The notes below the pieces were generated by a model, which was given only the letters and a program-made list of their open reading frames with translations, had not been told where the DNA came from and made no database searches. Source: Candidatus Rokuibacteriota bacterium (GTDB taxonomy: Bacteria; Methylomirabilota; Methylomirabilia; Rokubacteriales; DASRDR01). Taken from it: DNA of 64,000 bases. Shown here piece after piece: positions 24,851 to 63,003 of this stretch. The stretch lies in NCBI GenBank assembly GCA_044866005.1, contig JBIOTN010000175.1, forward strand, positions 6,330 to 70,329. Reading direction: 5' to 3'. Positions within the stretch are counted from its first letter, which is position 1, and each line of letters begins with the position of its first letter. The position numbers and the translations under genes were made by a program.

Positions 24851-24869
24851 CGACGCCCCCCGGGGTCCC

Positions 24870-25178: not shown

Positions 25179-25191
25179 GCAATCCTCCCGG

Positions 25192-25623
25192 CTAGCTGGC
25201 GACCCGCCGCTCGAGCGGCGCGCGCGCCAGGCGGATCTTCCCCAGGTGCCGCTGCGGCGCATGGCCCGGCGCCGCCACCCCGCCGGCGGCGAGCGCCTCG
25301 ACGGCCGAGGCGACGTCGTCGCAGACGTCGAAGAGCAGGTGGAGCTGCATGATCTCCAGGACGAGTCTGACCTGCGAGGCCAGCCCCACGAGGCAGACAT
25401 CCCCGCCGCGGCGCTCGGCCTGCCGGAGCAGCGTGACCAGCGCGGCAAAGCCGCTGGAGTCCACCCGCCGCACGCCGCTCAGGTCGATGGCCACCCGCGG
25501 CACCCCGATCGGCGCCAGCATGAGTCTGACGCGGCGCAGGAAGGCCGGTGCGGTGGGGACCGTGAGCTCGCCCTCGACGGTCAGGACGGTCACGCTGCCG
25601 AGTTGCTTGGACGTCACCTGCAT
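25192..25623 (-). CDS. STAS-domain anti-sigma-factor antagonist (SpoIIAA-like)
   Basis: MQVTSKQLGSVTVLTVEGELT...IDLSGVRRVDSSGFAALVTL is the classic STAS fold signature. Confidence 0.8.
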   Translation of the reverse strand: MQVTSKQLGSVTVLTVEGELTVPTAPAFLRRVRLMLAPIGVPRVAIDLSGVRRVDSSGFAALVTLLRQAERRGGDVCLVGLASQVRLVLEIMQLHLLFDVCDDVASAVEALAAGGVAAPGHAPQRHLGKIRLARAPLERRVAS

Positions 25624-26095
25624 GGACCAGGCTCCTTCTCCCGACCTCGACCCCGCGATGCACGCGACGTGGGGGCGCTCACGACGCCGCGTGACCGGAG
25701 GTCGGTGCCGTGCCTGGCTCGCGCGCTCCTGATTCGCTCCATCCGTGCCACCGGGTCGTGCGCTCGAAAATGATGCCGACTGATGCCCCTTCCGAGGAGC
25801 AAGACGGATGCCGAGCCCCCGTGGGCCGTGGGGACGCCTCGCTGGAGCCTGCCCCGGCGCGCCGACGCCGGATCAGAGGCCATGATCGGCGACCCGGCCC
25901 CGCGGCGCCCGGGCCGAAAGGTTGCGGACGAGGCTGCAACATTTGCCGCCCCGCCGGCCTGGGATGGCACACGCATGGCGTGGCATTCGCCTTGCCCGCT
26001 CGGGATCGCGACGACCGCGACGTCGTGCGTCGGTCGCCACCCCGCGAGTCGTGTCGGGCGCACCTCGCGCCGCGCAGAGCCGGACGATCGAGCCG

Positions 26096-26830
26096 TCAGG
26101 ACGCCCCCTTCCCCGAGATCACCGCGGGAATCGTACGCAACAGGATCACGAGGTCCATGCCCAAGGTCTGACGCTCGATGTACTGGACGTCGAGTCGGAC
26201 CTGGCCCGGGAAGTCGATGGCGTTCCGGCCCATCACCTGCCAGAGGCAGGTGATGCCCGGCGTCGCCATGAGCCGCCGTCGGTCGGCGGGGTCGTACAGC
26301 GCGACCTCCGACGGGAGCGGCGGACGCGGGCCGACCAGCGACATCTCGCCCTGGAGGACGTTCAGGAGCTGTGGCAGCTCGTCCAGGGACAGCTTGCGAA
26401 TCACGCGGCCGACCCGCGTGATGCGGGGATCGTTCTTGATCTTGAAGAGGATCCCGTCCCGCATCTCGTTCTGCGCCATGAGGTCGGCCTTCAGCGCCTC
26501 GGCGTTCAGCACCATGGAGCGGAACTTGTACATCACGAACAGGCGGCCGTCCTTGCCCACCCGAACCTGGTGGAAGAGGATCGGCCCGCCGTCCTCCAGC
26601 TTGATCCCGAGGGCGATGGCGAGCCAGATCGGCGCGGCGATCACGAGGAGCACGAGCCCGCCGAGGAGGTCCACGGCCCGCTTGAGGCGGGGCGTGGTCC
26701 CGACCCGCACGCGCCACAGGAGCCGGCCGACCGCGATGACGAAGAGGTCGCGGCGGCGCGCCCAGCCGACGCCGCCGCGGGCGAGACGCCGGTGAGTTTG
26801 ACGGAGGAGGCGGGCGCGCTCGGCCGTCAC
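26096..26830 (-). CDS. polyprenyl-phosphate hexose-1-phosphate transferase (bacterial sugar transferase, priming PHPT)
   Basis: [25 protein letters not shown]...[21 protein letters not shown]...[23 protein letters not shown] carries the reentrant helix plus the DE dyad and PRP motif. The GTG start is tentative. Confidence 0.8.
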   Translation of the reverse strand: [244 protein letters not shown]

Positions 26831-26867
26831 GCCAGACCCCCAACGGCGCTGCGTCCCCGGCCCGCGG

Positions 26868-28082
26868 TCATGCCGCTTTCTCCGTCGCCGGCACCCGCTT
26901 CCGCGGCGTGGGCACCCACTCCCGCGAGGCCCCGCCCAGGACCAGGGCGCAGTACCAGACCTTGGCGACCGCGTAGACCGGCCCGTACACGAACAGCGCG
27001 GCATAGGCGCGCGCCGGCACGCGAGCGAGCGCGCACCCGGTGAAGACGTAAAAGGCCTGCGCCGCGAGCAGGCCGGCCCAGATCACCGCCGGCGCGACGG
27101 GGCCGCCAGCGAGCCACGAGAGGCCGTGGAGCATCGCCGGGCCGGCGGTCCCGGCCGCGAGCAAGGCGAAGGGCGGCGTCGCCAGGTCCAGCATCAGGTC
27201 GAGATAGGGCACGCGCGCCCGGCCCGTCCGGGCCGTCGCGGCGCGGAGCAGCGGCACGAGGGCTCGCCGCGCCAGGGCGAACCGACCGCCCTCCCAGCGC
27301 AGCTCCTGGCTCCGCGCCGTCTTCATGGTCGGCTCCATGACCGTCTCGACCACGGCCCGGGGCACGAACACCGAGCGGATCCCGTGGAAGACGAGCCGGA
27401 GGTGGTACTCCTGGTCCTCCGCCACCGAGGCCGTCTCCCAGGGGACCTCCCGCAGCACTGCCCGGGTGAGGCAGATGCCGTTCCCCTGGAGGCCGGCCGA
27501 AGCGCCCAGCGCCTGCCGTCCCGCAGGACGCAGGTAGTGGATGAGCGCCATGTCCGCCGCCATCAGCGCGGTCCGCCAGCTCTCGTCGGCATTGCCAACG
27601 GCGCAGTACGCTTGCACGACCCGCGCTCCGGCCTGAAGGGCCAGATCCAGCTCGGTGAGCAGATCCGGCGCGGGGCGCGAGTCGGCGTCGAGGATGACGA
27701 ACGCGTCGTGACGGCGCTCGGGAAGCAGTCGCGCGAAGGCCCAGCCGAGCGCGGCGCCCTTGCTGCGGCGCGTGGGATCGCGGCGCTGGAGGACCCGCGC
27801 CCCGTGGGCCAGCGCGACCACCGCGGTGCCGTCGTCGCAGTTGTCGGCGACGACGATGACCTCGTAGCGTGGACGGGGATAGTCGAGCGCGTCGAGCGCG
27901 GCGAGCAGCTCAGGCAGCATCGCCGCCTCGTTGTGCGCGGGGACCACCACGGCGAACCGGTGGCGCGGCGCGCGCGGCGCCCGGCGCGCCGGGCGGGCGA
28001 CCGCCGCCGCGCCCGCCACCAGGGCCAGGTAGCCCGTGAAGACGGCGGCCAGCGCGATCAGCGGGAGCTCAGCGAGCCACAT
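26868..28082 (-). CDS. GT2 membrane glycosyltransferase
   Basis: FAVVVPAHNEAAMLPE...VIVVADNCDDGT...ILDADS, with C-terminal TM helices. Confidence 0.85.
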   Translation of the reverse strand: MWLAELPLIALAAVFTGYLALVAGAAAVARPARRAPRAPRHRFAVVVPAHNEAAMLPELLAALDALDYPRPRYEVIVVADNCDDGTAVVALAHGARVLQRRDPTRRSKGAALGWAFARLLPERRHDAFVILDADSRPAPDLLTELDLALQAGARVVQAYCAVGNADESWRTALMAADMALIHYLRPAGRQALGASAGLQGNGICLTRAVLREVPWETASVAEDQEYHLRLVFHGIRSVFVPRAVVETVMEPTMKTARSQELRWEGGRFALARRALVPLLRAATARTGRARVPYLDLMLDLATPPFALLAAGTAGPAMLHGLSWLAGGPVAPAVIWAGLLAAQAFYVFTGCALARVPARAYAALFVYGPVYAVAKVWYCALVLGGASREWVPTPRKRVPATEKAA

Positions 28083-28090
28083 GGGTGCCC

Positions 28091-30331
28091 TCAGGCGCTC
28101 TCGCGTCGGCCATCGTGCGCGTAATAGCCGTAGTTGGCGTAGAAGTACCGGTTACGGGAGAGCCGCACGTCGTTGAGCACGACGCCGAGGATCCGGGCCC
28201 CCAGGGCCTCGAGGCGGTCCCGCGCGATCTGGACGGCCTCCACCGGCGTGGCGTGGGCGCGGACCACCAGGAGCACGCCGTCCACGAGCGACGCCAGCAC
28301 GGAGGCGTCCGAGACGGCCAGGACGGGCGGGGAGTCGATGATGATCCAGGGGAACCGTTGCCGGAGCGTTCCCAGCAGGGTGCGCGCGCGCTCCGAGGAG
28401 AGCAGCGCGGCCGGATCGGGCGGCTTCGGCCCCGCCGGCAGGAACGTGAGGTTCGCGATCCCCGTCGTCACGAGCGCGACATCATGCGGCAGCCCGCGGT
28501 AGAGGAGCGAGGAGAGCCCCACCCGCGGGGACTCGATCCCGAACGCGCGATGACAGGCCGAGCGGCGGAAGTCCGCGTCGATCAGCAAGACCGTCTCGCC
28601 GCCTTCGGCGAGCGCGACCGCGAGGTTCACCGCGCTGAACGACTTGCCCTCCTGGGGCTGGGCGCTCGTCACCAGGATCGTGCGCGGCGTGTCGAAGGCG
28701 CGGCTGTGCAACACCAGCGCGCGGATCGATCGGAACGCCTCGCCGGCGATCTGCGCCGGCCAGGACAGCGCGTCCTCCGGAACCGCGCGCGTCGGCAGGT
28801 CCTCGAGCGCCGGGAGCGACTGGCGCGTATAGCTGCGCACCGACGGGACGGTGCCGAGGTTCGGCAAGCGGACGAGCAGATCGACCTCGCGCGGCGTCCG
28901 CAGCGTCTGATCGCCCGCCTCCCGGAAGAACGCGAGGGCGGCGCCGCCGATCAGGCCGGCGATGGTGGCGAGCAGCAAATCGCGGGTCTTCTTCGGGCTG
29001 GCGGGCCGGAGCGGCGCCCGGGCCGGGTCGGCGATCTTCACGTTCGTCACGCGGAGCTGGGCGGCGAGCTGCAGCTCCTTCAGCCGCTTCATCAGCTCGG
29101 CGTACACGGACTCGGTCGCGTCCGATTCCTTCTTGAGGAGCTGGAGCTGCATCTGCCGGGCGTGCTGGCTGATCGCCTCGCGCCGCTGGGAATCGAGCCG
29201 CCGGCCCAGCTCCGCCGCGCGGCGCGTCGCCGCCTGGTATTCCTGCTGGACCGCGTCCTTCGCCTTCTTGGTCTCGGTGTCGAGCCGGAGCTTCGCCAGC
29301 GAGAGCTCCGCCTCCAGCTCGATCATCTTGGGATGCTGCGGCCCGTACACCGTCTTGGCCCGCGCCAGCTCGCGCTCCAGCCGGGTGTACTCGCCCTTGA
29401 GGTTCCGGACGAGCTCGCTTCCCAGGGCGGCCGCCAGCGTCTCGGGGTCGGCGGAGGCGAGCATCCGGTAGCGCGCCTCCTTCTGGATACGGTCGCTCTC
29501 CGCCTCGGTGTAGGCGCGGTTCTGGTCGTCGAGCTGCTGGAGGACGAACTCCGTCTTGCCCTCGCGCGTCGGCACCAGGTTGTTCTTCTCGACGAACTGC
29601 TGGATGACGCCGCTCGCCTCCTGCGTGCGGGCGCGCAGACCGCCGAGCTGGTCCTCCAGCCACCGGCTGGCCGCCTCCGACGCCTCCCGCCGCTGGGCGT
29701 TCGTCATGGCGATGTACTCGCTGGCGATCGCGTTGGGAATGGCCGCCGCCAGGTCCCGGTCGGGGACGCGCGCGCTGATCCGCACGAGCCGGCTCCGCTT
29801 GACGGGCTCGATCTTGATGTCCTGCTCCAGGCCCTCGATGAACTCGTCCATGCCCGCCGACGGCTTCGGCGCGGCGGGACGCAGGCCCACCAGCCGGGCG
29901 GCGAAGGCGAAGACCTGTTCCCGCCGGCTCTGGCCCGGGGCGAAGGCGGGATGACGGGGAAGGTCGAGCCGCTCGGCCATCCGGGCGAGGAGCGTCCGGC
30001 TCCCCAGCAACTCGAACTGCGTCTGGTAGTAGGCGTCGAACACCCGCTCGTTCGCCGATTCCTCGTTCGGAGAGAGCTCCTGGAACGCGACCACGCGCGG
30101 CCGCTCGGGATCGATCTGGATCACGGCCGCGGCCTCGTAGAGCGGCCGCGTGGTGAAGCTCCACGTCGCGACCAGGCCCATCACGGCCGCGGTGAAGCCG
30201 AGAATCAGCCAGCGGCGGCCGACGAGGATGTCCCAGATGCTGCGCGCGGGCCGCTCGCCCTCGATGCGGACCACCTCGAGCTCGCGGTCGCCCGGCAGCG
30301 CGGACATCGGCCGGTGCGGGATCTCTCGCAT
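28091..30331 (-). CDS. polysaccharide co-polymerase / tyrosine autokinase (Wzc/EpsV-like PCP-2a)
   Basis: Wzz-like TM plus a long coiled-coil periplasmic domain, then a C-terminal P-loop kinase (SAQPQEGKSFSAVNLA, Walker A; DADFRRS; C-terminal YANYGYYAHD tyrosine cluster). Confidence 0.9.
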   Translation of the reverse strand: MREIPHRPMSALPGDRELEVVRIEGERPARSIWDILVGRRWLILGFTAAVMGLVATWSFTTRPLYEAAAVIQIDPERPRVVAFQELSPNEESANERVFDAYYQTQFELLGSRTLLARMAERLDLPRHPAFAPGQSRREQVFAFAARLVGLRPAAPKPSAGMDEFIEGLEQDIKIEPVKRSRLVRISARVPDRDLAAAIPNAIASEYIAMTNAQRREASEAASRWLEDQLGGLRARTQEASGVIQQFVEKNNLVPTREGKTEFVLQQLDDQNRAYTEAESDRIQKEARYRMLASADPETLAAALGSELVRNLKGEYTRLERELARAKTVYGPQHPKMIELEAELSLAKLRLDTETKKAKDAVQQEYQAATRRAAELGRRLDSQRREAISQHARQMQLQLLKKESDATESVYAELMKRLKELQLAAQLRVTNVKIADPARAPLRPASPKKTRDLLLATIAGLIGGAALAFFREAGDQTLRTPREVDLLVRLPNLGTVPSVRSYTRQSLPALEDLPTRAVPEDALSWPAQIAGEAFRSIRALVLHSRAFDTPRTILVTSAQPQEGKSFSAVNLAVALAEGGETVLLIDADFRRSACHRAFGIESPRVGLSSLLYRGLPHDVALVTTGIANLTFLPAGPKPPDPAALLSSERARTLLGTLRQRFPWIIIDSPPVLAVSDASVLASLVDGVLLVVRAHATPVEAVQIARDRLEALGARILGVVLNDVRLSRNRYFYANYGYYAHDGRRESA

Positions 30332-30353
30332 CAGACGCTCCTTGCGGTGTCGC

Positions 30354-31403
30354 TCACGGTGAAATCCCGATGCTGAAGATGCCTTTGAAGAAGTCGAGGA
30401 CGCCGTAGGCCGCCGTCTTGGCGCCGCTCGCCGGGACCACGACGACGTCCTGCGCCTGGAGCGCGACGTCCTGGCTCCGGTCGCCGGCCATGACGGCCTT
30501 GAGGTCGATCCCCCCGATCTCCTTCTTCTCCCCGGTCGGCAGCGTCCGAACGATCTTGATCTCCCGGGTCGCCGCCCGGTTGGTCACGCCGCCGGCCTCG
30601 GTGATCGCCTTGGAGATCGTGGTGTCGCGGCGCAGCGTGTAGGCCCCGCGCTTCTCCACCTCGCCCGCGACGTAGTAGGTGTTCGCCTCCGGGACGTAGA
30701 CGGAGTCTCCCGGCTCGAGCACGACGTTCTGGCGCGGGTCGCCGCTCCGCAGCAGCGCTTCGAGGTCCACGGTGACCGGCTGGGGCTCGCCCTGCCGCGG
30801 CTTCGCGCGGAGCACGTAGGCGACCCGGTCGGCGTTTTCCTTGACGCCCTTGGCCTCGGACATGGCGAGGAGCACGGTCGTGGAGTTGCTCTTCAGCGCG
30901 TACGATCCCGGCTGGTTGACCGCGCCCATGACCGCGACCTGCCGGCCCTGGAACTCCGTCACGCTGACGGTCACCTTCGGGTTGAGGAGGTAGCGGCCGC
31001 GAAGGCCGGACTCGAGCTTCTCCTCGACTTCCTTCGGAGACAGGCCCACGACGGGGACCTCGCCCAGGAGCGGAAGCGTGATCGTCCCCGTCTCGCTCAC
31101 GCGGACGGTGCGGCTGAGGTCCTCCTGCCCGTAGACGTGGATCGCCAGCTGGTCCTTGGGCGCGACCTTGTAGTCGCCCTCGGGAGCGGTGGCCGGCGTC
31201 GGCGGAGGCTGGAGCGAGACCGGCGGGGGCGCGAGCGTCGGGCCGCCCGGCGGCGTCACCGCGCCCGACGGCGTCGCCGCTCGCCCGGTCGCGGGGCTCG
31301 ACGCCGCCGGCCGGGCTCCCTCGGCGGGAGCCTTCGAGGCAGTGGCGCAGCCGCTGCCCGCGATCAAACTGCCGATCAGAGCGAACACAATCCCATGCCG
31401 CAT
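30354..31403 (-). CDS. outer-membrane polysaccharide export lipoprotein (Wza/OPX family)
   Basis: MRHGIVFALIGSLIAGSGC lipobox, Pro/Ala-rich linker, PES and SLBB-like motifs (YKVAPKDQLAIHVYG, VAVMGAVNQPGSYAL). ATG 31403 follows the RBS GAGGGG. Confidence 0.85.
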   Translation of the reverse strand: MRHGIVFALIGSLIAGSGCATASKAPAEGARPAASSPATGRAATPSGAVTPPGGPTLAPPPVSLQPPPTPATAPEGDYKVAPKDQLAIHVYGQEDLSRTVRVSETGTITLPLLGEVPVVGLSPKEVEEKLESGLRGRYLLNPKVTVSVTEFQGRQVAVMGAVNQPGSYALKSNSTTVLLAMSEAKGVKENADRVAYVLRAKPRQGEPQPVTVDLEALLRSGDPRQNVVLEPGDSVYVPEANTYYVAGEVEKRGAYTLRRDTTISKAITEAGGVTNRAATREIKIVRTLPTGEKKEIGGIDLKAVMAGDRSQDVALQAQDVVVVPASGAKTAAYGVLDFFKGIFSIGISP

Positions 31404-31430
31404 CGTACGCACTGCCCCTCCCGACCGCGG

Positions 31431-31446
31431 AGCAAGGGATGTGCCA
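31431..31446 (-). promoter_or_regulatory. sigma-54 (-24/-12) promoter driving wza-wzc-GT2-PHPT
   Basis: Minus-strand sequence TGGCACatcccTTGCT matches TGGCAC-N5-TTGCW exactly. The predicted TSS near 31420 leaves a 17-nt leader containing GAGGGG before ATG 31403. Confidence 0.6.
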
Positions 31447-31682
31447 GGGAGGGGGGCACTTCCCGGGACCCTTCGCGGAAGCGTCCCCGCTCCACGGTCC
31501 GATCGCGGGTCCGGACATCTGAGGTCCGGCCCCGGACTGGGCCGCTGCCGGTTGTGGCCCTGCATATCCCCGGCCGGCGGAGCGCGCGACCCAAAGTTGC
31601 CCACGTCAGTGCAACAATTTCCGGGGGCGGGCGGGGCGCGTGGCCGATGACCGGCCGAGGCGACGGAAGCGGAGCGGTCCAC

Positions 31683-31698
31683 TGGCACGCCCATTGCT
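31683..31698 (+). promoter_or_regulatory. sigma-54 (-24/-12) promoter driving wzy-RR-wzx-deacetylase
   Basis: TGGCACgcccaTTGCT, with GG and GC at the canonical 10-nt spacing, about 20 nt upstream of ATG 31718. Confidence 0.6.
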
Positions 31699-31717
31699 GC
31701 CTCCGGAGAAACGAGCC

Positions 31718-33193
31718 ATGCGCGCCGTGGCGTCGTTCTCCCGGGTCCGCCCCGAAGAAGCCCTGCTCGTCGGCCTCACCGCCCTCGCCCTGGTGGCCGG
31801 GCTCACGGTCGGCGCCGAGACGCCGCTCGCCTACCTCGTCCTGGCGGTCCCCGTCGTCGCCGGCCTGGCGATGTGGCGGCCGGTCTACGGCCTCGCCCTC
31901 CTGCTCGGGGCGGTCCTCTTCTCCGAGCAGTACACGATCGAGACACTCGCGGGCGACATCAAGCCCTTCCTGCTCCAGAACCTGCCGATCTTCGAGAGCC
32001 TCGACCGCTTCACCCCGGTGCCGGTCAAGACGAACGTCGTCGAGCTCTGGCTCATCGGCCTGACCGTCATCTGGGCCGTCAAGGCGATCGCCGCCCACCG
32101 GTTCCAGCTCCGCCCCGTCCCGTGCACCGTCGCCTGGATGCTCGCCGGCATCACCCTCGCCGTCACGTTCGTGCGGGGGATGTCGAGCGGCGGCGACCTG
32201 AGCGCGGCGATCGTGGAGGTCCGAGCGCTCGGCTACCTGATCGGGCTCACCTGGCTCGTCCCGCAGATCGTCGAGCACCGGCGCGACGTCGGGCTGCTCG
32301 TCGGGGTGATGGTGATCGCGCTCGCCGCCAAAGCGGTACAGGGCCTCTACCGGTACTTCGTCATCCTCGGCATGCACCTCGACCTGACCCAGACGTTTCT
32401 GGCGCACGAGGATCCCGTGATGTTCGTGCCGCTCTTCTACCTCATGATCGCGCTCTGGGGCGCGTCGACGGAGCTCCGGCTCCGGCGCCTGCTGCAGGTC
32501 AGCACGCCGATCATGTTCGCCGCGCTGGTGCTGACGCAGCGGCGCATCGCCTACATCACGCTCTGCCTGTGCGCGGTCTTCTTCGCCTTCATCCTCGCGC
32601 CGGCCGCCCGCCGGACGTTCCTGCGCGTGACCGTGCCGATCGCGCTCGCCGGGGCGGCTTACGCCGTGGCGTTCGCGGGCTCCTCCTCGCCGCTGGCGCA
32701 GCCCATCGACCGCGCGCTCACCCTCTTCGACCCGACGAACCGGTCGAACCTCTACCGGCTGATCGAGCTGGAGAACCTCCGCTACACGATCCAGCTCCAC
32801 CCGTGGGGCATCGGCTTCGGTCAGCGGTACGAGATTCTCCGGTCGCTGCCCAAGCTCGATTGGGCGCTCTACGAGTACATCCCGCACAACGAGATCCTGT
32901 GGATCTGGGTCAAGGCCGGCTGGATCGGCTTCATCCTCGTGATGTTCTTCTTCGCCCGCGTCGTGATCGAGGCGGTGTGGACCTACCGGCGGCTTCGCGA
33001 TCCGCTCCTGTCCGCGGTGGCGGCCGTCGTCGGGATCGCCGTCGTGAACCAGCTCTTCGCCTCGTACTACGAGCTCCAGCTGACGTACGGGCGGAACATG
33101 ATCTACCTCGGCACGCTGATCGGACTCCTCGGACCGATCCAGGCATGGGGCGGCCTGCGGCCGCCGCCGTCGCTCTGGCGCTGGCGTCTGTAA
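31718..33193 (+). CDS. O-antigen ligase / Wzy-like polysaccharide polymerase
   Basis: About 11 TM helices and the Wzy_C-type loop (YIPHNEILWIWVKAGWIGFILVMFF). ATG follows GGAGAAA. Confidence 0.8.
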   Translation: MRAVASFSRVRPEEALLVGLTALALVAGLTVGAETPLAYLVLAVPVVAGLAMWRPVYGLALLLGAVLFSEQYTIETLAGDIKPFLLQNLPIFESLDRFTPVPVKTNVVELWLIGLTVIWAVKAIAAHRFQLRPVPCTVAWMLAGITLAVTFVRGMSSGGDLSAAIVEVRALGYLIGLTWLVPQIVEHRRDVGLLVGVMVIALAAKAVQGLYRYFVILGMHLDLTQTFLAHEDPVMFVPLFYLMIALWGASTELRLRRLLQVSTPIMFAALVLTQRRIAYITLCLCAVFFAFILAPAARRTFLRVTVPIALAGAAYAVAFAGSSSPLAQPIDRALTLFDPTNRSNLYRLIELENLRYTIQLHPWGIGFGQRYEILRSLPKLDWALYEYIPHNEILWIWVKAGWIGFILVMFFFARVVIEAVWTYRRLRDPLLSAVAAVVGIAVVNQLFASYYELQLTYGRNMIYLGTLIGLLGPIQAWGGLRPPPSLWRWRL

Positions 33194-33205
33194 AGGGGAA
33201 ACAGG

Positions 33206-33619
33206 ATGAAGGGGGCCGGAGGGCGGCCGCCGGCGATCCTCGTCGCCGACGACGACGTGGCGATCACCGCGACGTTCGAGAACATCCTCCGGAGCGAGGG
33301 GTACGACGTCGCCACGGCGAGCGACGGGCTGGAGGCGGTCGAGCTGGCGCGGGCGCGTCGGTTCGACCTGATCCTGCTGGACCTCATCATGCCGCGCCAG
33401 GACGGCCTGGCCGCGCTCCGCGAGATCCGCGCCGTCGCGCCGGACAGCCGGGTGGTGATCCTCTCCGCCTACATCGAGCCGGATCGGGAGGCGGAGGCCT
33501 ATCGGCTCGGCGCCGTGGGCGTGCTCGCGAAGCCGCCCGACCTCAAGAAGCTGCTCCGGTTCATCGACGAGCTGACACGCGCCGAGCAGCCAGGCCCCAG
33601 CTCGGGAGCACCCCGATGA
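33206..33619 (+). CDS. single-domain response regulator (CheY-like receiver)
   Basis: ILVADDD...DLILLDLIMP...AKP, 137 aa with no output domain. Confidence 0.85.
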   Translation: MKGAGGRPPAILVADDDVAITATFENILRSEGYDVATASDGLEAVELARARRFDLILLDLIMPRQDGLAALREIRAVAPDSRVVILSAYIEPDREAEAYRLGAVGVLAKPPDLKKLLRFIDELTRAEQPGPSSGAPR

Positions 33620-33635
33620 GCCTTCACGTCGGCCC

Positions 33636-35114
33636 ATGGACCCGCTGAGCAGCATCCTGCGCAACTCCTCCCTCCTCGCCGCGGCTCAGGCGGTGTCGAG
33701 CCTGATCGGGATGGCGCTGGTCGTACTGCTGCCGCGCTTCCTGGGCGACGCGGAGTTCGGCCGCCTCCACCTCGCGCTCTCGCTCACGGGGATGTTCAGC
33801 GTGGCCGTGCAGTTCGGCCTCACCAGCGTGGTGGCGCGGGCGGTGGCGCGTCAGCGGACGCTGGCGCGTCCCTACTTCCGGAGCGCGACGGCCCTGATCA
33901 CGGCGCTGGGCGCGGTGACGTACGTGGTGCTCCTCGCCCTGGTCCGCATCCTGGGCTACCCCGTGCACATCCACGAGCTGGCCGCGATCCTCGGGATCGT
34001 GATGGTCGCCGACGCGCTGTCCGAGACGCTCAGCGCGCTCTTCCTGGCGCACGAGCGGATGCTCGTGCCGGCCGCGGCCCGGATCGTCGGCAACGCTTTC
34101 ACGCTCGCCGTCGCCGTGCCGCTCCTCGCCCACGGCTACGGCGCGCGGGCCGTGGCCACGGTCATGGTGACGGCGGCGGGGCTCCGGCTCATGATCCAGG
34201 CCGCCTCGCTCCGGCGCCTCGACGGCTTCCGGGGCACCGACGCGCCGCCGGCCGGATCCTGGCGCGAGCTCCTCGCGGCGGGCTTTCCGTTCCTCGTGTG
34301 GGAAGCCCTCGGGATCCTCTACTTCCGGATCGACGTCCTGATGCTCGGCCTGATGACCACCGACGCGACCGTCGGCTGGTACGGCGCGGCCTCCCGGCTC
34401 CTCGACGCGCTCGGGTTCGTCCCGCACATCCTGACGGTGGCGACCTTCCCGGTCGCGGCCCGTCTCTGGGTGACCGCCCCCGACGAGTTCCGCGCGATCG
34501 TGCGGAAGGCGCTCCAGCTCATGCTCGTCGTCACGGTCCCCGTGGCGGTCCTCCTCCTGACGCTCGCGCGGGACATCGTGGGGTTCCTCTTCACGCTGGA
34601 GTCGTTCGGGCCGTCGGTCCCCATCCTGAGAATCCACGCGCTGACGCTCGCGGTGCTCTTCATCAACTTCTTCCTGGTCGGGGTGCTCATGGCGATCGGC
34701 CGCGAGCGGGCCTGGATCGCGGTGGCCGGGCTGGCGTGCCTCCTGAACCCCGCCATGAACCTGGTGCTGATCCCCCTGACCGACGCGCGGTTCGCCAACG
34801 GCGGCATCGGCGCGGCGATCGCCACGCTGCTCACCGAGCTGTTCGTCCTGGCCTGCGCCGTGGCGCTCTATCCGGCCGGCACGCTGGGCCGCGCCTCGTG
34901 GCGGATCGCGGCGCAGGCGGCCGGGTCCGGCGCCCTCATGGGGGCGCTCGTCCTGGGGAGTCGCGCGCTGGACCTCCCGTGGATGCTGGCCGCGGTCGTG
35001 GGCGGGCTCGGCTATCTCCTCGCGGTCGTCCGGCTCGGCATCGTGCCCGAGGCCGTCACCGGCCTCGTGCGACGGGGCGCGGCGCGACGCTCCCCGGCGG
35101 AGCTGGTGTCGTGA
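33636..35114 (+). CDS. Wzx-type polysaccharide flippase (MOP superfamily)
   Basis: 492 aa, 12-14 TM helices. N-terminal LLAAAQAVSSLIGMALVVLLPRFLG is typical of polysaccharide biosynthesis proteins. Confidence 0.85.
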   Translation: MDPLSSILRNSSLLAAAQAVSSLIGMALVVLLPRFLGDAEFGRLHLALSLTGMFSVAVQFGLTSVVARAVARQRTLARPYFRSATALITALGAVTYVVLLALVRILGYPVHIHELAAILGIVMVADALSETLSALFLAHERMLVPAAARIVGNAFTLAVAVPLLAHGYGARAVATVMVTAAGLRLMIQAASLRRLDGFRGTDAPPAGSWRELLAAGFPFLVWEALGILYFRIDVLMLGLMTTDATVGWYGAASRLLDALGFVPHILTVATFPVAARLWVTAPDEFRAIVRKALQLMLVVTVPVAVLLLTLARDIVGFLFTLESFGPSVPILRIHALTLAVLFINFFLVGVLMAIGRERAWIAVAGLACLLNPAMNLVLIPLTDARFANGGIGAAIATLLTELFVLACAVALYPAGTLGRASWRIAAQAAGSGALMGALVLGSRALDLPWMLAAVVGGLGYLLAVVRLGIVPEAVTGLVRRGAARRSPAELVS

Positions 35115-35190
35115 GGGCCGCCGGCACCCCCGCGAGCGTGCCCGCCGCCCGGGACGGCCGGACAGGCGCCTCGCCGCCCCGGACCCGCCG

Positions 35191-35973
35191 GTGACGACGC
35201 CCGGCCGCGCCACGCTCGCTTCGTCCCCGGAGCGGAGCCGACGGCGAAAGGCCTCGCTCGGTCAACCGCCCGTCTTCATGTACCACGGCCTCACGCCCCG
35301 GACGGGCAGCCATCCGGGAAGCCTCGCCGTCTCGCGGTTCCGCGCCCAGCTCGCCGCGCTGCGGACGCTGGGCTACCGGTCGATCCGACCCGGCACGCTC
35401 GCCGCGGCCCTCCGCGGCGAGGCCCCGTTGCCCTCAGGCTCGGTCGTGCTCACCTTCGACGACGGCTACCTCGATACGCTCACCGAGGCGCTGCCGCTCC
35501 TCCTGGAGTTCGGCTTCACGGCGACCTGCTACGTGGTGGCGGGCGCCGTCGGCGGCGTCTGCCATTGGACCGACCCGGCGCCGCTCATGGGCTGGGACCA
35601 CCTGCGGAGCTGGCTTGCCGCCGGCATGGAGATCGGGGCCCACTCGGTGAGCCACCGCGACCTCACCCGGCTCGACACCGCGGCGCTCCGGGAGGAGGTC
35701 GAGGGCGCGAAGGCGCGCCTGGAGGACCGGCTCGGGGAAGCGATCCCCACGTTCGCCTATCCTTTCAACCGTGTCGACCGCCGTGCCATGGCGGGAGTCG
35801 AGGCGGCCGGCTACGCGTCGGCCTGCGCCGGCGTGGAGGTCCGCCACTCGCCCTACGCGCTCTCCCGCGTGGACGTCGCCCACGACTCCTGGGCGTGGTT
35901 CGGGCTTCAGCTCCTCCCCGTCTACCACGAGCTTCACGGCGCCTACCGCGCCCTGGTCCCGCGGCGCCGCTGA
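35191..35973 (+). CDS. polysaccharide deacetylase (CE4 / NodB homology)
   Basis: VVLTFDDGY...EIGAHSVSHRDL...PFN. GTG start, with ATG 35278 as the alternative. Confidence 0.8.
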   Translation: MTTPGRATLASSPERSRRRKASLGQPPVFMYHGLTPRTGSHPGSLAVSRFRAQLAALRTLGYRSIRPGTLAAALRGEAPLPSGSVVLTFDDGYLDTLTEALPLLLEFGFTATCYVVAGAVGGVCHWTDPAPLMGWDHLRSWLAAGMEIGAHSVSHRDLTRLDTAALREEVEGAKARLEDRLGEAIPTFAYPFNRVDRRAMAGVEAAGYASACAGVEVRHSPYALSRVDVAHDSWAWFGLQLLPVYHELHGAYRALVPRRR

Positions 35974-59190: not shown

Positions 59191-59891
59191 TCAGCGTGGT
59201 CATTCCCGCCCGCAACGAAGCCCGGACGATCGGCGCGACGCTCGACCATCTCGAGGCCTGCACGCCCCCGGACGCGGCAGAGGTCGTGGTCGCCGTCGGC
59301 GGCTCGACCGACGAGACGGCGAAGATCGCCGCCCGGGCCGCGCGCGTCGTCCACGGGGACGACCCCACGCGCGCCGGGCTCCTCAACGCCGGGGCGCGAG
59401 CGGCCCGGGGGGACGTCCTCCTCTTCCTCCACGCCGACACGCTCCCCCCGCCGGACTACGTCGCCGCGATCGAGGCCGCGCTCGTCCCCCCCGCGGTCGT
59501 CGGCGGCGCGTTCGACTTCGAGTTCCAGGAGCGGGCCTGGCGCCTCGCGGCGATCTCGACGCTGAACCGCCTGCGCTGTCGCCTCACGGGCAACTTCTAC
59601 GGCGACCAGGGCATCTTCGTCCGCCGCGCCGTCTTCGACCGGCTCGGGGGCTTCCCGCGCCGGCAGCTCTTCGAGGACGTCGTCTTCTCGCAGGCGATGC
59701 GCGAGGCGGGGCAGACCGTGCTCCTCCGGGGCCGGCGCGTCCGGAGCTCCGGCCGGCGGCTCCTCGCGCGCGGCTTCTGCCGGACGATCGGTCTCATGAC
59801 GTGGCTCATCGCGCTCCACGCGCTCGGCCGGGACACCGAAGGCTATGCCGCCCGCTATCACGGCGGGCGGCCGACGGGCCCGGGCTCGTGA
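59187..59891 (+). CDS. small soluble GT2 glycosyltransferase (possibly the TIGR04283-like subfamily)
   Basis: VISVVIPARNEARTI...VAVGGSTDET...FLHADT is a GT2 A-fold. The GTG start overlaps the upstream stop (GTGA). The subfamily assignment is from memory only. Confidence 0.75.
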   Translation: MISVVIPARNEARTIGATLDHLEACTPPDAAEVVVAVGGSTDETAKIAARAARVVHGDDPTRAGLLNAGARAARGDVLLFLHADTLPPPDYVAAIEAALVPPAVVGGAFDFEFQERAWRLAAISTLNRLRCRLTGNFYGDQGIFVRRAVFDRLGGFPRRQLFEDVVFSQAMREAGQTVLLRGRRVRSSGRRLLARGFCRTIGLMTWLIALHALGRDTEGYAARYHGGRPTGPGS

Positions 59892-59929
59892 CGCCTTCGG
59901 AGGGGGCCTCGACGGCCCCCGCCGATGCC
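59891..59929. repeat. repeated intergenic element type B, copy 2
   Basis: gagggggcctcgacggcccccgccgatgcctcccccggg lies immediately 3' of the GT2 stop. Compare 50762..50800. Confidence 0.4.
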
Positions 59930-60021
59930 TCCCCCGGGAAGTGCGCCGGCACAGCCGGCGCTCGGAGCGCTCGTTCCAGAGCGCGGGGTCATTCGGCGAC
60001 TGGAGCCCCCTGCGCGGCGCT

Positions 60022-60957
60022 TCAGGCCGCGCGGGCGCCTGGCGTCGCCGGGGGCTCGCCGGCCCGGTGGACGGGGTGCCCGCCGTACTGGTTGCGCAGG
60101 AGGGCGACCGCCTTGGCGGTGGGCGAGTCGAGGTCGCGATACTGCATGAGCATGGTCTGCGAGAGCGTCACGACGGGGGTCGGGATGTCCCGCTGGAAGG
60201 CCCAGTCCACGACCCACTTGACCTCGCCCGTGTCCTCGACGTAGGGCGAGAGCCGCGCGAACTCCGGCTCCTCCCGGAGCGCCTGGCCCATCAGCTCGAC
60301 GAGCCAGCTCCGGATCACCGAGCCGTGCTGCCAGTTGTCGAAGAGGGCCGGGAGGTCGAGCGCGAAGCCGGAGCGCTGCAAGAGCTCCACGCCCTCCGCG
60401 ATCGCCTGGACCATCCCGAACTCGATCGCGTTGTGGACGAGCTTGACGAAGTGGCCGGCTCCCGAGGGGCCGACGAAGACCGCGCCGCGCGCGTCCACCG
60501 CCAGGTCCCGGAGGATCGGGAGGACGAGGTCATAGGCCGCGCGGTCGCCGCCGGCCATGAAGCAGGCCCCGTGGCGGGCGCCGCTCACCCCGCCGCTCGT
60601 GCCGACGTCCAGGAACCGGATCCCGCGCTCGGCGAAGAGGCGCGCCCGCCGCTGGGAGTCCGCCCAGTGGGAGTTGCCGCCGTCCACCACGACGTCGCCC
60701 GCCGCGAGGAGCGGTCGGAGCCCGTCGCACACGCTCTCGGTCGCGGCCCCGTGCGGCACGTAGACGAAGACGATGCGCGGCGGCTCGAGCCGCGCGGCCA
60801 GCTCGGCGAGCGACGCGGCCGCCGCGAGCCCTTCCCGGGCGAGCCGCTCGGTGGGCCCGGGATCGCGGTTGTAGCCGGCGACGCGGTGGCCTTTCTCCAT
60901 CGCGCGCCGCGCCAGGTTCGCCCCCATGCGACCGAGGCCGACGATCCCGAAGGTCAT
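60022..60957 (-). CDS. 6-phosphogluconate dehydrogenase-like NAD(P)-binding dehydrogenase (short Gnd/YqeC type)
   Basis: MTFGIVGLGRMGANLA Rossmann motif. Central GxxGxGH-type motif (VGPSGAGHFVKLVHN) is typical of the 6PGDH/beta-hydroxyacid dehydrogenase family. Confidence 0.85.
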   Translation of the reverse strand: MTFGIVGLGRMGANLARRAMEKGHRVAGYNRDPGPTERLAREGLAAAASLAELAARLEPPRIVFVYVPHGAATESVCDGLRPLLAAGDVVVDGGNSHWADSQRRARLFAERGIRFLDVGTSGGVSGARHGACFMAGGDRAAYDLVLPILRDLAVDARGAVFVGPSGAGHFVKLVHNAIEFGMVQAIAEGVELLQRSGFALDLPALFDNWQHGSVIRSWLVELMGQALREEPEFARLSPYVEDTGEVKWVVDWAFQRDIPTPVVTLSQTMLMQYRDLDSPTAKAVALLRNQYGGHPVHRAGEPPATPGARAA

Positions 60958-61002
60958 GCCTGCCTCCTTTGCCTCTGCCCGCGCGCCCGCGGCCGGCCCG
61001 CC

Positions 61003-62343
61003 TCAATCCCACATCGCGTCGAAGACGGAGCCCGCGACCGTGGGGAAGACGTAGTGCATGCCCGCCAACTCCCGCCGCGTGAGGCCGCCCCGCATCGCGA
61101 CCGCCGCGATGTGGATCAGGTCCTCCGCGCCGGCCCCCAGGACGTGGACGCCGAGGAGCCGGCCGCTCGACCGCTCGTAGACGACCTTGACGAGCCCCTC
61201 GGTCTCCGCCCGCACGCCGGCCGCCGCGCTGTCCGCGAACGGCGCGCGGCTCACCGCGACGTCGAGCCCCCGGCGCCGCGCCTCGGCCTCCGTGAGGCCG
61301 ACCTGCGCGAGGGTCGGGATCGTGAACACCGTCGTCGGCAGGAGGCCGAAGTCGACGCCGCGGCGGTTGCCCTGGAGCGCGTTCTCCACCGCGAGGCGGC
61401 CCTCGTACCAGGCGACGGGCGTGTGCTGGTGCTGCCCCGTCACGTCGCCGGCCGCGTAGACGTGGGGGGCGCTCACGGACTGGCGGTACTCGTTCACCTT
61501 GACGCCGCCGCGCTCCGTCGCGACACCGGCCGCCTCGAGGCCGAGCCGGCCGGTGTTGGGCGGGCGGCCGGTCGCGACGAGGACGACGTCGGCCCGGAAG
61601 CGCGCCGCCTTGCCGTCCACCTCGGCCTCGACCGTCCGATCGGGCGCGATCCGGCGGACCTTCGCCCCCGTGCGGACCACGAGACCCGCGGCGCGGCCCA
61701 GCTCGACCAGCGCCTCGCGGAGCTCCGCGTCCACGTGCGGGAGCACCGCCGGTCCGGACTGGAGCACCGTGACGCGCGTCCCGGCCCGGGCGAAGGCGAA
61801 GCCGAATTCCATTCCGATGAGGCCGCCGCCGATGACCACGAGCCGCGCGGGACGCGTGGTGCGGTCGAGCAGCTCGTCGCTCGTGAGCGCGCGCTCGACG
61901 CCCTCGATCGATGGACGCGCGGGCGAGGAGCCGGTCGCCAGGACGACGCGCTCGGCGGTCACCCGCCGGTCGCCGACCCGGAGCTCGTGCGCGCCGGTGA
62001 ACGCGGCCTGGCCCCGGAGCACCGCGATGCCTTGATCTTCCAGGCTCCTGGGCTTGCCCTTCGACCACTCCGCGACGAGCCGGTTCTTCCGCGCGATGAC
62101 GGCGCGCCAGTTCAGGCCGACGCCGGCCGTCCCCGTGAGCCCGAGCTTGGCGGCGTGCCGGGCCCGCCACCAGAGCTCGACGGTGCTGACCAGCACCTTC
62201 TTCGGAATTCAGCCCGTGCCGAGGCAGGTCCCCGCGAACCCGTCCTGCTCGACGATCGCCGTCCGGGCGCCGAGCTCCCTGCCCGTCCGGGCGGCCGTCG
62301 TCCCGGCGGTCCCGGCCCCGATGACCACGAGATCGTAGTCCAC
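61003..62343 (-). CDS. flavoprotein disulfide reductase (dihydrolipoamide dehydrogenase/glutathione reductase/MerA class I family) with in-frame UGA (candidate selenocysteine) at 62211..62209
   Basis: Track ORFs 62209..62421 and 61003..62196 are in the same frame, separated by one TGA. Together they read VDYDLVVIGAGTAGTT...GTCLGTG[U]IPKKVLV... The TGA occupies the position of the second Cys in the CxxxxC active-site motif GGTC(V/L)N(V/G)GC(I/V)P(S/K)K. The GTG start 62343 follows GAGGAGGG. The C-terminal HxxxP dimer motif is present (MHYVFPT). Confidence 0.7.
62182..62197 (-). other. SECIS-like hairpin (GGUGCU-GGUC-AGCACC) starting 11 nt downstream of the in-frame UGA
   Basis: 6-bp stem with an apical GGUC loop. 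The E. coli fdhF minimal SECIS is GGUUGCAGGUCUGCACC, also with a GGUC loop 11 nt after its UGA (recalled from memory). Confidence 0.55.
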
Positions 62344-62599
62344 CTGACCCTCCTCGCTCGCGGCGTCGTTCCGCCTCAGCACGGTGTCTCGCGGGCAGAT
62401 TCCGCCGCACAGGTGGCGCACTCGAACGTGAGCCGGTAGCGGCGCCCCAGCACTCGACGGCCTCCCCCGCCTACTACTCTACGATACTGCCAGAAATGCG
62501 CCGGCCTGGCCCGGACGCGCCGCGGTCGCGGCTGCGCCGCGCCGCGAGCAACAGAAGGACGTCGAGCCAGGGGCGATGACAGACAACCGGGCCGCGCCG

Positions 62600-62709: not shown

Positions 62710-63003
62710 ATGGTTCGAGAAGTCCTGGGCACCGTGTCGGTCGCTGCGCTGCTGGCGCTCGGCGGAACGGACGCGCTGGCTCAAGCCGCGAACCCCTGTG
62801 CCGCGAAGAAGCCGGCCGCGCAGCCCGCCAACCCGTGCGCGGCCAAGAACCCGTGCGCGGCGAAGAACCCGTGCGCCGCCAAGAAGCCCGTCGCCGCTCA
62901 GATCGCGAGAGGCACGACGATCACCACGGCCAGCGCGCCGGAGGAGATCCCACGTTTTCCGCGATCCTTCGGCGCCGGGACCGGTGGCGGCGTCCAGAAG
63001 TAG
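62710..63003 (+). CDS. small secreted protein with four NPCAAK(K/N) cysteine repeats
   Basis: ATG follows GGAGGTGAGG. Signal peptide MVREVLGTVSVAALLALGGTDALA. Mature part is PCAAKKPAAQPANPCAAKNPCAAKNPCAAKKP. Confidence 0.6.
   Translation: MVREVLGTVSVAALLALGGTDALAQAANPCAAKKPAAQPANPCAAKNPCAAKNPCAAKKPVAAQIARGTTITTASAPEEIPRFPRSFGAGTGGGVQK

Follow-up and report, generated by a model that had tools for sequence, protein, structure and literature searches.

We found that one minus-strand region of the window (the whole 64-kb stretch of DNA analysed here) is very probably a single functional gene for a FAD/NAD(P)H-dependent selenoprotein of the GR/LipDH/MerA fold, in which the UGA at codon 45 specifies selenocysteine (Sec). 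The first-pass annotation had reported two same-frame ORFs split by a single TGA, and this is what the sequence contains: one frame runs from a GTG start (62343-62341) to a terminator TGA (61005-61003), and its sole interruption is the TGA at 62211-62209 (Table 1). A search of the 64-kb window for other genes with an in-frame TGA found none. The protein sequence around the stop is ...GFAGTCLGTG*IPKKVLVSTVEL....

With the stop replaced, the read-through protein matches Pyr_redox_2 (residues 3-315, E 3.6e-61), Pyr_redox (E 2.2e-16) and Pyr_redox_dim (residues 336-440, E 2.6e-27), bearing out its earlier assignment to the DLD/GR/MerA-type flavoproteins. Both dinucleotide-binding glycine motifs, for FAD and NAD(P)H, and the C-terminal dimerisation domain are present, and the motif glycines are invariant across orthologs. 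When we aligned the protein to its best solved relatives, MerA (5x1y, E 4e-76) and E3 (2eq7, E 2e-68), the stop fell in the column of the second Cys of GTC(V/L)xxGC(V/I)PSK, placing U in the Cys column as had been anticipated. The orthologs share a fixed start at M/V-DYDL with no N-terminal extension, several having stop codons upstream, and a conserved C-terminus, ...FDAMW(x); the window protein ends ...FDAMWD.

Table 1 Features of the candidate selenoprotein gene, in window coordinates.
Feature	Position	Strand	Description
Selenoprotein-candidate CDS	61003..62343	-	446 codons including proposed Sec45, plus terminator TGA 61005-61003; CLGTGU redox centre
Shine-Dalgarno-like AGGAGGG	62348..62354	-	4 nt 5' of GTG start 62343-62341; read from sequence
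FAD-binding GxGxxG (G8-A-G-T-A-G13)	62305..62322	-	Within the 44-residue N-terminal segment split off by gene callers
Cys40 codon TGC	62224..62226	-	First, interchange-position residue of the redox pair; from sequence and alignment
In-frame TGA, proposed Sec45	62209..62211	-	Second, flavin-proximal position of CxxxxC; from sequence and alignment
Proposed bSECIS hairpin	62182..62197	-	5' arm 62197-62192, loop 62191-62188, 3' arm 62187-62182
NAD(P)H-binding GGGxxG (G172-G-G-L-I-G177)	61813..61830	-	Pyr_redox residues 167-235; glycines invariant among orthologs
Dimerisation (interface) domain, residues 336-440	61024..61338	-	Pyr_redox_dim E 2.6e-27
Family signature H430-Y-V-F-P-T-V-A-G438	61030..61056	-	H-x-H-P-[ST]-x-S-E in relatives; from alignment to 2eq7 and ortholog columns

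The in-frame UGA is conserved throughout the family. We compared the window gene with readable orthologous loci from 25 other species, all of them MAG or metagenome assemblies, from Rokuibacteriota/Methylomirabilota, Binatia, Acidobacteriota and delta-proteobacterial MAGs. Codon 45 is TGA in all 26 genes, which share 55-93% pairwise identity, and neither TGC/TGT nor TAA/TAG occurs there in any of the 26 species. The 44 codons before it and the 401 after it are conserved in frame, with 50-84% identity for the N-terminal segment in the 25 other loci. Cys40 is encoded by TGC/TGT in 25 of the 26 orthologs; in the remaining one (L001) this codon is also TGA, giving TGA at both codons. Among the best 120 protein-database matches (71-100% identity), all 120 are about 397 residues long, cover 89% of the query and are cut at the same residue. 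A search of 1.84 billion representatives returned no full-length Cys form above about 42% identity, and no Cys ortholog lies above about 46%; the Cys homologs P0128, P0129 and P0134 (38-39% identity) have GC(K/V/I)P(K/T)K at the U45 site. The family's genes end in TGA in 16 of 26 cases, as do most genes of the window, and thus UGA is not globally reassigned.

These data bear on the null reading of the first-pass annotation, in which a nonsense mutation has turned the gene into a pseudogene, or the stop is an error of assembly. One in-frame stop in a MAG-derived contig is what such an error would look like, and two related loci do show assembly-type defects (a frameshift in L018 and a deletion in L012). 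But the identical TGA recurs in 26 independent species assemblies, flanked on either side by sequence under purifying selection, the cut falls at the same residue in 120 of 120 database clusters, and the synonymous sites just downstream are frozen (see below); a single contaminating sequence is excluded by the 55-93% pairwise identities among the loci. We therefore give the null reading practically no chance, conservation of the UGA, of the frame and of the hairpin together excluding a pseudogene.

Eleven nucleotides past the UGA and inside the coding sequence, the mRNA can form the hairpin GGUGCU-GGUC-AGCACC, with a 6-bp stem and a 4-nt GGUC loop that begins 17 nt past the UGA; its coordinates, fold and spacing agree with the fdhF-like element described in the first-pass annotation. 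RNAfold predicts the hairpin in every context tried, at -7.8 kcal/mol alone and -10.4 kcal/mol with flanks, though its energy is ordinary: z-scores against dinucleotide shuffles are +0.63 and +0.31, no better than shuffled sequence. Since the DNA is 74% G+C, the folding-energy z-score is uninformative, and we used comparative tests instead; these proved decisive, the orthologs showing the hairpin to be overwhelmingly more than a chance fold. Rfam gave no match to the hairpin at gathering or permissive thresholds. Published criteria for the bSECIS model cover the apical loop, the stem, the UGA-to-loop spacing and the minimum free energy (PMC13188914), and the hairpin agrees with all four (a 4-nt loop starting GG, a 6-bp stem, 17 nt and -7.8 to -10.4 kcal/mol).

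Where the UGA is conserved, so is the hairpin. Across the 26 species, no synonymous change touches any of the 12 stem nucleotides, against a background of 242 conserved degenerate codon columns with a mean synonymous entropy of 1.02 bit, only 3.7% of them invariant. K49, V50, S53 and T54, the codons of the stem, show no variation; changes are confined to loop nucleotides 1 and 4, and of all 5-codon windows of the gene, that of the hairpin has the lowest diversity. In relatives at 34-46% identity, the hairpin lies at the same codons but is built from other stems (GGCUCU/AGGGCC, GGCCCU/AGGGCC and GGCCUU/AAGGUC). A covariation test, resting on these five distant relatives only as the stem is invariant within the family itself, found 96% of cells paired and double compensatory changes in two of the six pairs, a score reached by 0 of 500 shuffles. 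A possible lower stem, formed by the UGA region and GAGCUN, was also considered; we rejected it on inspection of the orthologs by eye, as its positions vary without covariation.

The window hairpin resembles the E. coli fdhF SECIS in having GGUC in the apical loop, an upper stem 11 nt past the UGA and a location within the coding sequence. The fdhF element has a bulged U in its 5' arm; the window hairpin has no such bulge, its 6 bp forming a perfect helix capped by a 4-nt loop.

An ordinary tRNA could also read the UGA, by near-cognate suppression with Trp, Cys or Arg, the hairpin merely stimulating read-through. The missing bulged U and the lack of an Rfam match would suit this explanation, as would the searches for Sec machinery: ARAGORN, run on the window and on 29 loci that each represent a small portion of a genome, detected no tRNA-Sec, and tblastn with approximate E. 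coli queries gave no hits to SelA, SelB or SelD in the window and L001-L032 (about 500 kb of related loci, again small parts of the genomes). Against it, the codon sits on a redox-active Cys site, at which no residue but Cys or Sec would function; were Cys needed, a single mutation would give TGC, which nevertheless appears in none of the 26 species or 120 database clusters; and in loop and spacing the hairpin conforms to the SelB-type bSECIS model. Moreover, as judged from sequence, the lineage uses Sec. The contig holds a second UxxC selenoprotein gene, of TlpA/Redoxin type, at a distance of 3.6 kb, with a UGA at a CxxC Cys (W-U-PHC) and a hairpin of its own, and the phylum is reported to be selenoprotein-rich, with 63 predicted selenoprotein genes in one Methylomirabilota MAG (PMC13188914). 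Suppression by an ordinary tRNA thus seems to us very unlikely, and Sec insertion is the reading that we follow below. We propose that SelB with Sec-tRNA(Sec), drawn by the GGUC-loop hairpin, would decode the codon.

We take the position of U45 to be equivalent to that of the charge-transfer Cys in LipDH and MerA. The redox pair has the position and x4 spacing of class I reductases and differs in its UGA-encoded second residue (C-x4-U), so that it matches the class provided that Sec is taken as an analogue of Cys. The first-pass annotation had placed Sec at the interchange Cys, which is wrong: of the two Cys of CxxxxC, the second is the charge-transfer residue next to the flavin, as Cys63 is in human glutathione reductase (PMC9835686). 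By homology, Sec45 would replace this charge-transfer Cys, and Cys40 would occupy the interchange position, facing the substrate. Cys40 and Sec45 are the sole conserved Cys/Sec columns of the family, which has no C-terminal Cys or Sec pair.

The family also lacks the acid-base His-Glu dyad (HPxxxE) that the partner subunit contributes in this fold. In the alignment to 2eq7, F433 stands opposite the His before Pro; this catalytic His position is F in 20 of 24 sequences and Y in the other four, and the Glu position is an invariant Gly (G438). Together, the loss of the dyad and the lack of a C-terminal Cys/Sec pair indicate that the enzyme is not an ordinary lipoamide, glutathione, thioredoxin or mercuric reductase, and the read-through protein scores below the cut-offs of all NCBIfam equivalogs.

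The closest relatives of the family, at 34-46% identity and thus at least as close as any Cys form, are uncatalogued sister clades that have in-frame TGA codons of their own. We identified four UxxxxC forms (L033, L035, L036 and L037) and a low-G+C CxxxxU form (L038). In all five, a TGA falls within the redox motif, a hairpin occupies the codons that it has in the window family, and the annotation is cut short in the same way; all five differ from the window family in keeping the dyad (IHPSLSE or VHPTMSE). In the four UxxxxC forms, Sec would occupy the first Cys position rather than the second, with the hairpin 26 nt past the UGA; these genes have a nearer candidate hairpin in addition to the one at the shared position. 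We consider it slightly more likely than not that the window gene represents an unrecognised reductase clade that is Sec-only in the sequences examined, with selenium in place of sulfur against the flavin (C-x4-U) and the ancestral dyad lost. Taken with the U-x4-C sister clades and the one genome that has TGA at both codons, it would show that Sec can switch its position in the redox centre while a hairpin stays in place. The sister clades would then offer a rare view of a Sec codon relocating within an active site.

The differing position of the UGA also bears on whether the locus is a split gene, encoding a 44-residue peptide and a 397-residue protein that starts at an internal GTG (62196) and is made separately, the two perhaps associating. 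Gene callers predict precisely these two products everywhere, and the GTG lies 12 nt past the UGA. The break would, however, fall inside the continuous CxxxxC helix, leaving the FAD-binding fold and Cys40 on a separate chain; TGA is the one stop that occurs here, never TAA/TAG; the internal GTG has no ribosome-binding spacing 5' of it; and in the relatives the break shifts to the other Cys codon, not to a neutral linker. Two separate products are accordingly very improbable in our judgement, and we retain the reading of one continuous selenoprotein.

We compared this candidate selenoprotein with the known families of its fold. It resembles the class-I reductases (LipDH, GR and MerA) in fold, domain order, both GxGxxG motifs and an x4-spaced redox pair on the same helix, and differs from them in having Sec as the flavin-proximal residue and in lacking the His-Glu dyad. 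Its score is 305 bits against an NCBIfam cut-off of 480 for glutathione reductase, and 349.1 bits against 408.8 for dihydrolipoyl dehydrogenase (TIGR01350); no 2-oxoacid dehydrogenase gene is a neighbour. Against MerA (TIGR02053) it scores 339.4 bits with a cut-off of 454.45, and it has neither the C-terminal Cys pair nor the NmerA (HMA) domain. The catalytic His position is aromatic in MerA too, as it is in the window family.

The only well-known selenium-containing members of the fold are, to our knowledge, the animal thioredoxin reductases (TrxR), which carry Sec remotely on a flexible C-terminal tail (GCUG) and have a Cys/Cys flavin-proximal pair. The window protein shares with the high-Mr animal enzymes its status as a selenoprotein, the fold and an N-terminal motif like C-x4-C-IPKK. 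In contrast to them, it has Sec within the flavin-proximal pair and no C-terminal redox tail, and its UGA is followed by an in-frame bacterial hairpin, whereas TrxR has a SECIS in the 3'-UTR. Against TGR/TrxR (TIGR01438), it scores 159.8 bits with a cut-off of 475.85.

Two catalogued selenoprotein families were also compared. In the TIGR03385 flavoproteins the redox Cys adjoins the FAD. Their Sec-containing form belongs, like the window protein, to the superfamily with two dinucleotide-binding domains and has Sec in place of a redox Cys (PMC13188914 Table 1). Unlike the window protein, it represents another subfamily with a single redox residue (UGxP) and no CxxxxC, and the window protein reaches 102.7 bits against a cut-off of 578.8 over residues 132-431 only, with the U45 region outside the match. 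NF041115 is likewise a predicted selenoprotein, with a catalogue name linked to mercuric reductase, but its motif is UxxU and not an x4-spaced flavoprotein redox centre; from the motif and the catalogue name it is probably of the heavy-metal-binding (HMA) type, and it is not among the NCBIfam families for which the window protein scores at least 103 bits. The window family itself is absent from the prokaryotic selenoprotein catalogues of 2022 (87 families) and May 2026 (119 families), the table of the 2026 review also taking in the families of Haft & Tolstoy 2025, Haft & Gwadz 2023 and Deng et al. 2026. There is no NCBIfam model for the family, and annotation pipelines will therefore keep missing it.

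From the predicted arrangement of the active site, we suggest a catalytic cycle. NAD(P)H would reduce the FAD, and the reduced flavin would attack selenium, opening a Cys40-S-Se-Sec45 selenenylsulfide. The freed Cys40 thiolate could then attack the oxidised substrate, and the Sec45 selenolate, which would be ionised at neutral pH without a base, would resolve the intermediate as the Se-S bond re-forms. Our best guess for the substrate is a small disulfide, a persulfide, or a soft electrophile or metalloid.

Flavoprotein disulfide reductases are the textbook case of electron transfer from a flavin to a dithiol, and a natural Sec in contact with the flavin, in an enzyme without the dyad, would be a ready-made experiment on it. 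If our reading is true, the effect of selenium on flavin C4a-adduct and charge-transfer chemistry becomes open to study, and the enzyme may perform chemistry beyond that of a dithiol centre, such as the turnover of a class of substrates so far unconnected with the fold. At least 25 species-level genomes contain the family, and its sequences fall into more than 120 clusters; most come from Rokuibacteriota/Methylomirabilota, lineages that abound in soil and groundwater. All entries that we saw are truncated and carry the name 'NAD(P)/FAD-dependent oxidoreductase' or 'E3 component'; thousands of entries would be wrongly cut short if the codon is indeed Sec.

The neighbours named in the first-pass annotation are both present, a 6PGDH-like gene (60957..60022) starting 45 nt downstream of the candidate gene and a divergent Cys-repeat ORF (62710..63003, plus strand). 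The 6PGDH-like gene, Cys-repeat peptides, DUF302 and cytochromes are neighbours in no other locus of the family, and all-against-all clustering of the flanking ORFs revealed clade-level synteny only. As the neighbours are not conserved, the neighbourhood gives no clue to function. Among the sister clades, three forms end ...CCG and adjoin arsD/arsA, copZ/redoxin or an ArsR-type regulator.

The in-frame TGA of the reductase gene is flanked by the translation ...DGFAGTCLGTG*IPKKVLVSTVEL..., and the 446-residue read-through product matches the Pfam families Pyr_redox_2 (residues 3-315, E 3.6e-61), Pyr_redox and Pyr_redox_dim (residues 336-440, E 2.6e-27). Among proteins of solved structure, it most resembles a mercuric reductase (5x1y, E 4e-76) and a lipoamide dehydrogenase (E3; 2eq7, E 2e-68). 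In alignments to both, the TGA occupies the column of the second Cys of GTC(V/L)xxGC(V/I)PSK, where the first-pass annotation had proposed selenocysteine (Sec). Its description of a TGA followed 11 nt later by a hairpin proved accurate in all sequence details by sequence, translation and RNAfold, and the 6PGDH-like gene 45 nt away and the divergent Cys-repeat ORF were also as described. By homology, the product is predicted to be an enzyme of the class-I flavoprotein disulfide-reductase type whose redox centre is Cys40-x4-Sec45. Long spurious ORFs lie on the opposite strand or in other frames over 61003-62439 and elsewhere (for example 59845-62439 (+), 864 aa), as is typical of 74% G+C DNA; the true frame is told by its third-position G+C of ~0.96.

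Coordinates of the reductase gene, its candidate SECIS element, and genes at related or adjoining loci
Feature	Position	Strand	Details
Reductase reading frame	GTG 62343-62341 to terminator TGA 61005-61003	-	sequence and translation
AGGAGGG 5' of reductase start	62354-62348	-	sequence
In-frame TGA, sole interruption of reductase frame	62211-62209	-	sequence
Hairpin GGUGCU-GGUC-AGCACC	62197-62182	-	starts 11 nt after TGA; RNAfold, all contexts tried
TlpA/Redoxin-type gene, secreted	L031 897-1454 (~66043-65486 in window numbering, just outside window)	+ (in L031)	~3.6 kb from reductase gene
Secreted (A/G)NPCAAK-repeat protein	62710-63003; 18-nt tandem unit 62830-62891	+	signal-peptide-like N-terminus; no Pfam match
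Paralogous (A/G)NPCAAK-repeat protein	L031 1513-2094, outside window	+	signal-peptide-like N-terminus; no Pfam match
Sister clade, U-x4-C	L033 2833-4215; L035 2848-4254; L036 642-2024; L037 2848-4230		37-46% identity; His-Glu dyad kept
Distant relative, C-x4-U at second Cys (CLNWG-U-MPKK)	L038 2827-4233		low G+C (41%); VHPTMSE kept

Among 5.8 billion proteins, the best 120 matches to the read-through query were 71-100% identical and 380-401 aa long; they cover just 85-90% of the query, indicating that all are truncated at one shared point. Those that carry a name are annotated as 'NAD(P)/FAD-dependent oxidoreductase', 'dihydrolipoyl dehydrogenase family protein' or 'E3 component', and organisms named among them are Candidatus Rokubacteria, Rokuibacteriota and candidate division NC10. 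An ortholog scan with one genome per species yielded 30 loci, 25 with readable upstream DNA. Codon 45 is TGA in all 25 (TGC/TGT, TAA and TAG in none), and the 44 preceding codons are kept in frame in every one (M/V-DYDLxVIGxGTAG...GTCLxxG), with stop codons immediately 5' of the start in several. The carriers, 55-93% identical pairwise, belong to Rokuibacteriota/Methylomirabilota, Binatia, Acidiferrales, and 'Deltaproteobacteria' and 'Proteobacteria' MAGs. A change of genetic code is excluded by the use of TGA as the terminator in 16 of 26 orthologs and in the majority of window genes.

One ortholog from Rokuibacteriota (L001) carries TGA at both redox codons (9971-9973 and 9986-9988; GT-U-LGTG-U), a single observation that could reflect a true U-x4-U form, polymorphism or sequencing error. 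In a long-read MAG the ortholog is split by a frameshift (L018, 10001-11194), and another is ~34 codons shorter (L012, 2431-3519); both retain the TGA and hairpin, and their defects look like assembly artefacts or decay.

The hairpin was predicted in all sequence contexts tried, but in this 74% G+C sequence its folding energy did not improve on that of dinucleotide shuffles (z +0.63 and +0.31), and an Rfam search gave no match for it; the evidence in its favour is comparative. Across 242 conserved degenerate codon columns in 26 orthologs, mean synonymous entropy was 1.02 bit and 3.7% of columns were invariant. All four stem codons (AAG-K49, GTG-V50, AGC-S53 and ACC-T54) were invariant, where Ser has a choice of six codons and Thr and Val of four each, and the 5-codon windows KVLVS and VLVST had the lowest synonymous diversity in the whole gene. 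Variation in the hairpin was confined to loop positions 1 and 4 (GGUC, CGUG, GGUU, GGUG). With a UGA-loop gap of 17 nt and an MFE of -7.8 kcal/mol alone (-10.4 with flanks), it agrees with all four criteria of a published bacterial SECIS model, which include a stem of 4-16 bp, a gap of 16-37 nt and MFE <= -7.5 kcal/mol (PMC13188914).

We then searched 1.84 billion cluster representatives exhaustively with the N-terminally truncated database form of the reductase (397 aa). The nearest clusters were also truncated at the N-terminus (P0121, 69%; P0123, 46%; P0125, 45%; P0126, 40%; P0127, 37%; P0133, 34%), and the closest full-length Cys forms shared only 38-42% identity. DNA of five of these relatives contains an in-frame TGA within the same redox motif, at the first Cys in four (L033, L035, L036 and L037; GGT-U-L(N/W)RGC-IPKK). 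This U-x4-C sister clade includes ~17 truncated clusters from MAGs of Armatimonadetes, Actinobacteria and Blastocatellia, none annotated as a selenoprotein. Three members end in ...CCG, a MerA- or TrxR-like tail, and their genes adjoin arsD/arsA, copZ and a redoxin, or an ArsR-type regulator.

In all five relatives the same codons form a hairpin, with altered stems (GGCUCU-GGUC-AGGGCC, GGCCCU-GGUC-AGGGCC, GGCCUU-GGU-AAGGUC); that of L038, AGGCCUU-GGU-AAGGUCU, begins 10 nt after the UGA. In an 18-sequence alignment, 96.3% of cells are paired, double compensatory changes occur in two of the six pairs (U-A to C-G; G-C to C-G or U-G), and neither any of 500 shuffles nor any slid register reached the observed pairing score. 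These comparisons indicate that the hairpin is under selection as RNA. In the U-x4-C forms it lies 26 nt after the UGA, within the range of the bacterial SECIS model; their SECIS may be this shared-codon hairpin or, alternatively, a nearer small hairpin. We consider the reductase very probably a genuine Sec-decoding gene; the finding is real and its initial interpretation essentially right.

One point of that interpretation is reversed. The first-pass annotation had placed Sec at the interchange Cys. In lipoamide dehydrogenase, MerA and TrxR, the second Cys is the flavin charge-transfer residue. The equivalent residue of human glutathione reductase, Cys63, makes a charge-transfer complex with the flavin (PMC9835686). 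By this equivalence, Sec45 would be flavin-proximal and Cys40 the substrate-facing interchange residue; these two are the sole conserved Cys/Sec columns in the family. The His-Glu acid-base dyad (HPxxxE) is lost, the family reading H-Y-V-(F/Y)-P-T-L-(A/G)-G with an invariant Gly against H-A-H-P-S-L-S-E in E3, whereas HP(S/T)xSE is retained in all five sister sequences. MerA, too, is aromatic at the His position, but its C-terminal Cys pair and N-terminal metal-binding domain are absent from the reductase family. From homology and selenium chemistry, NAD(P)H would reduce FAD, the reduced flavin would attack the selenium of an Se-S bridge, the Cys40 thiolate would attack substrate, and the selenolate, ionised without a base, would resolve the intermediate. 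Our confidence in this scheme and in any substrate class is much lower than in Sec decoding; tentative substrate candidates are small disulfides or persulfides and soft electrophiles or metalloids. The gene neighbourhood offers no clue to function: no window neighbour of the reductase recurs at other loci.

Searches of the window, contig flank and ~500 kb of related loci found no tRNA-Sec, selA, selB or selD, an absence expected by chance there and uninformative. On the same contig, adjoining the window (L031; JBIOYM010000024.1, GCA_044870165.1), the TlpA/Redoxin-type gene has a TGA at the first Cys of its thioredoxin-fold motif (FWATW-U-PHC) and a hairpin 12 nt later (GGAGGGA-GUU-UCCCUCC, -10.9 kcal/mol), and AhpC-TSA and Redoxin matches to its read-through product span the stop. 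This is probably a second selenoprotein, of the catalogued UxxC type. Together with a Methylomirabilota MAG reported to have 63 predicted selenoprotein genes (2026 review, PMC13188914), it indirectly supports Sec use by the source organism.

Neither a 2022 list of 87 prokaryotic selenoprotein families (PMC9312934) nor a May-2026 list of 119 families and subfamilies (PMC13188914) contains an Lpd/GR/MerA-type protein or a flavoprotein with C-x4-U/U-x4-C. The three nearest entries are different proteins: a CoA-disulfide-reductase/NADH-oxidase-type flavoprotein (TIGR03385, UGxP; the reductase scores 103 against a cut-off of 579), and a type III sulfide:quinone reductase (HxxU) and a third entry, neither among the NCBIfam matches listed. 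NCBIfam equivalogs, including lipoamide_DH, MerA, GR, mycothione reductase, RclA, HOSCN reductase and TGR, all fell below cut-off, and neither the family nor its sister clade is captured by any model in the June 2026 release. The N-terminus is missing from every database entry among the best 120 matches of either search. In 2026, Deng et al. reportedly applied deep-Sep to 44,000 groundwater MAGs, yielding novel, unvalidated candidates. Our full-text literature search did not find the family, and an earlier computational listing is possible (Deng et al. 2026, BSepDB). A family of this fold in which Sec lies next to the flavin, the dyad is gone and every sequence examined is Sec-only appears absent from the catalogues and literature searched. 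Substitution of Sec for Cys through an in-frame SECIS is classical; we regard the reductase as a solid, testable new selenoprotein family within a classic enzyme superfamily, not as a new principle.

The two small (A/G)NPCAAK paralogs, which adjoin the reductase in no other genome compared, sit among c-type cytochrome genes (cbb3-type cytochrome c, Cytochrome_C554-like multihaem), DUF302 and the TlpA-like gene, and may bind metals or chalcogens in the periplasm. Unrelated to the reductase finding, the window also holds an exopolysaccharide biosynthesis cluster (~23300-35800) encoding a sugar-nucleotidyl transferase, STAS proteins, Bac_transf, GT2, a Wzz/GNVR tyrosine-kinase type protein, Poly_export, Wzy_C, a response regulator, a flippase and a polysaccharide deacetylase.
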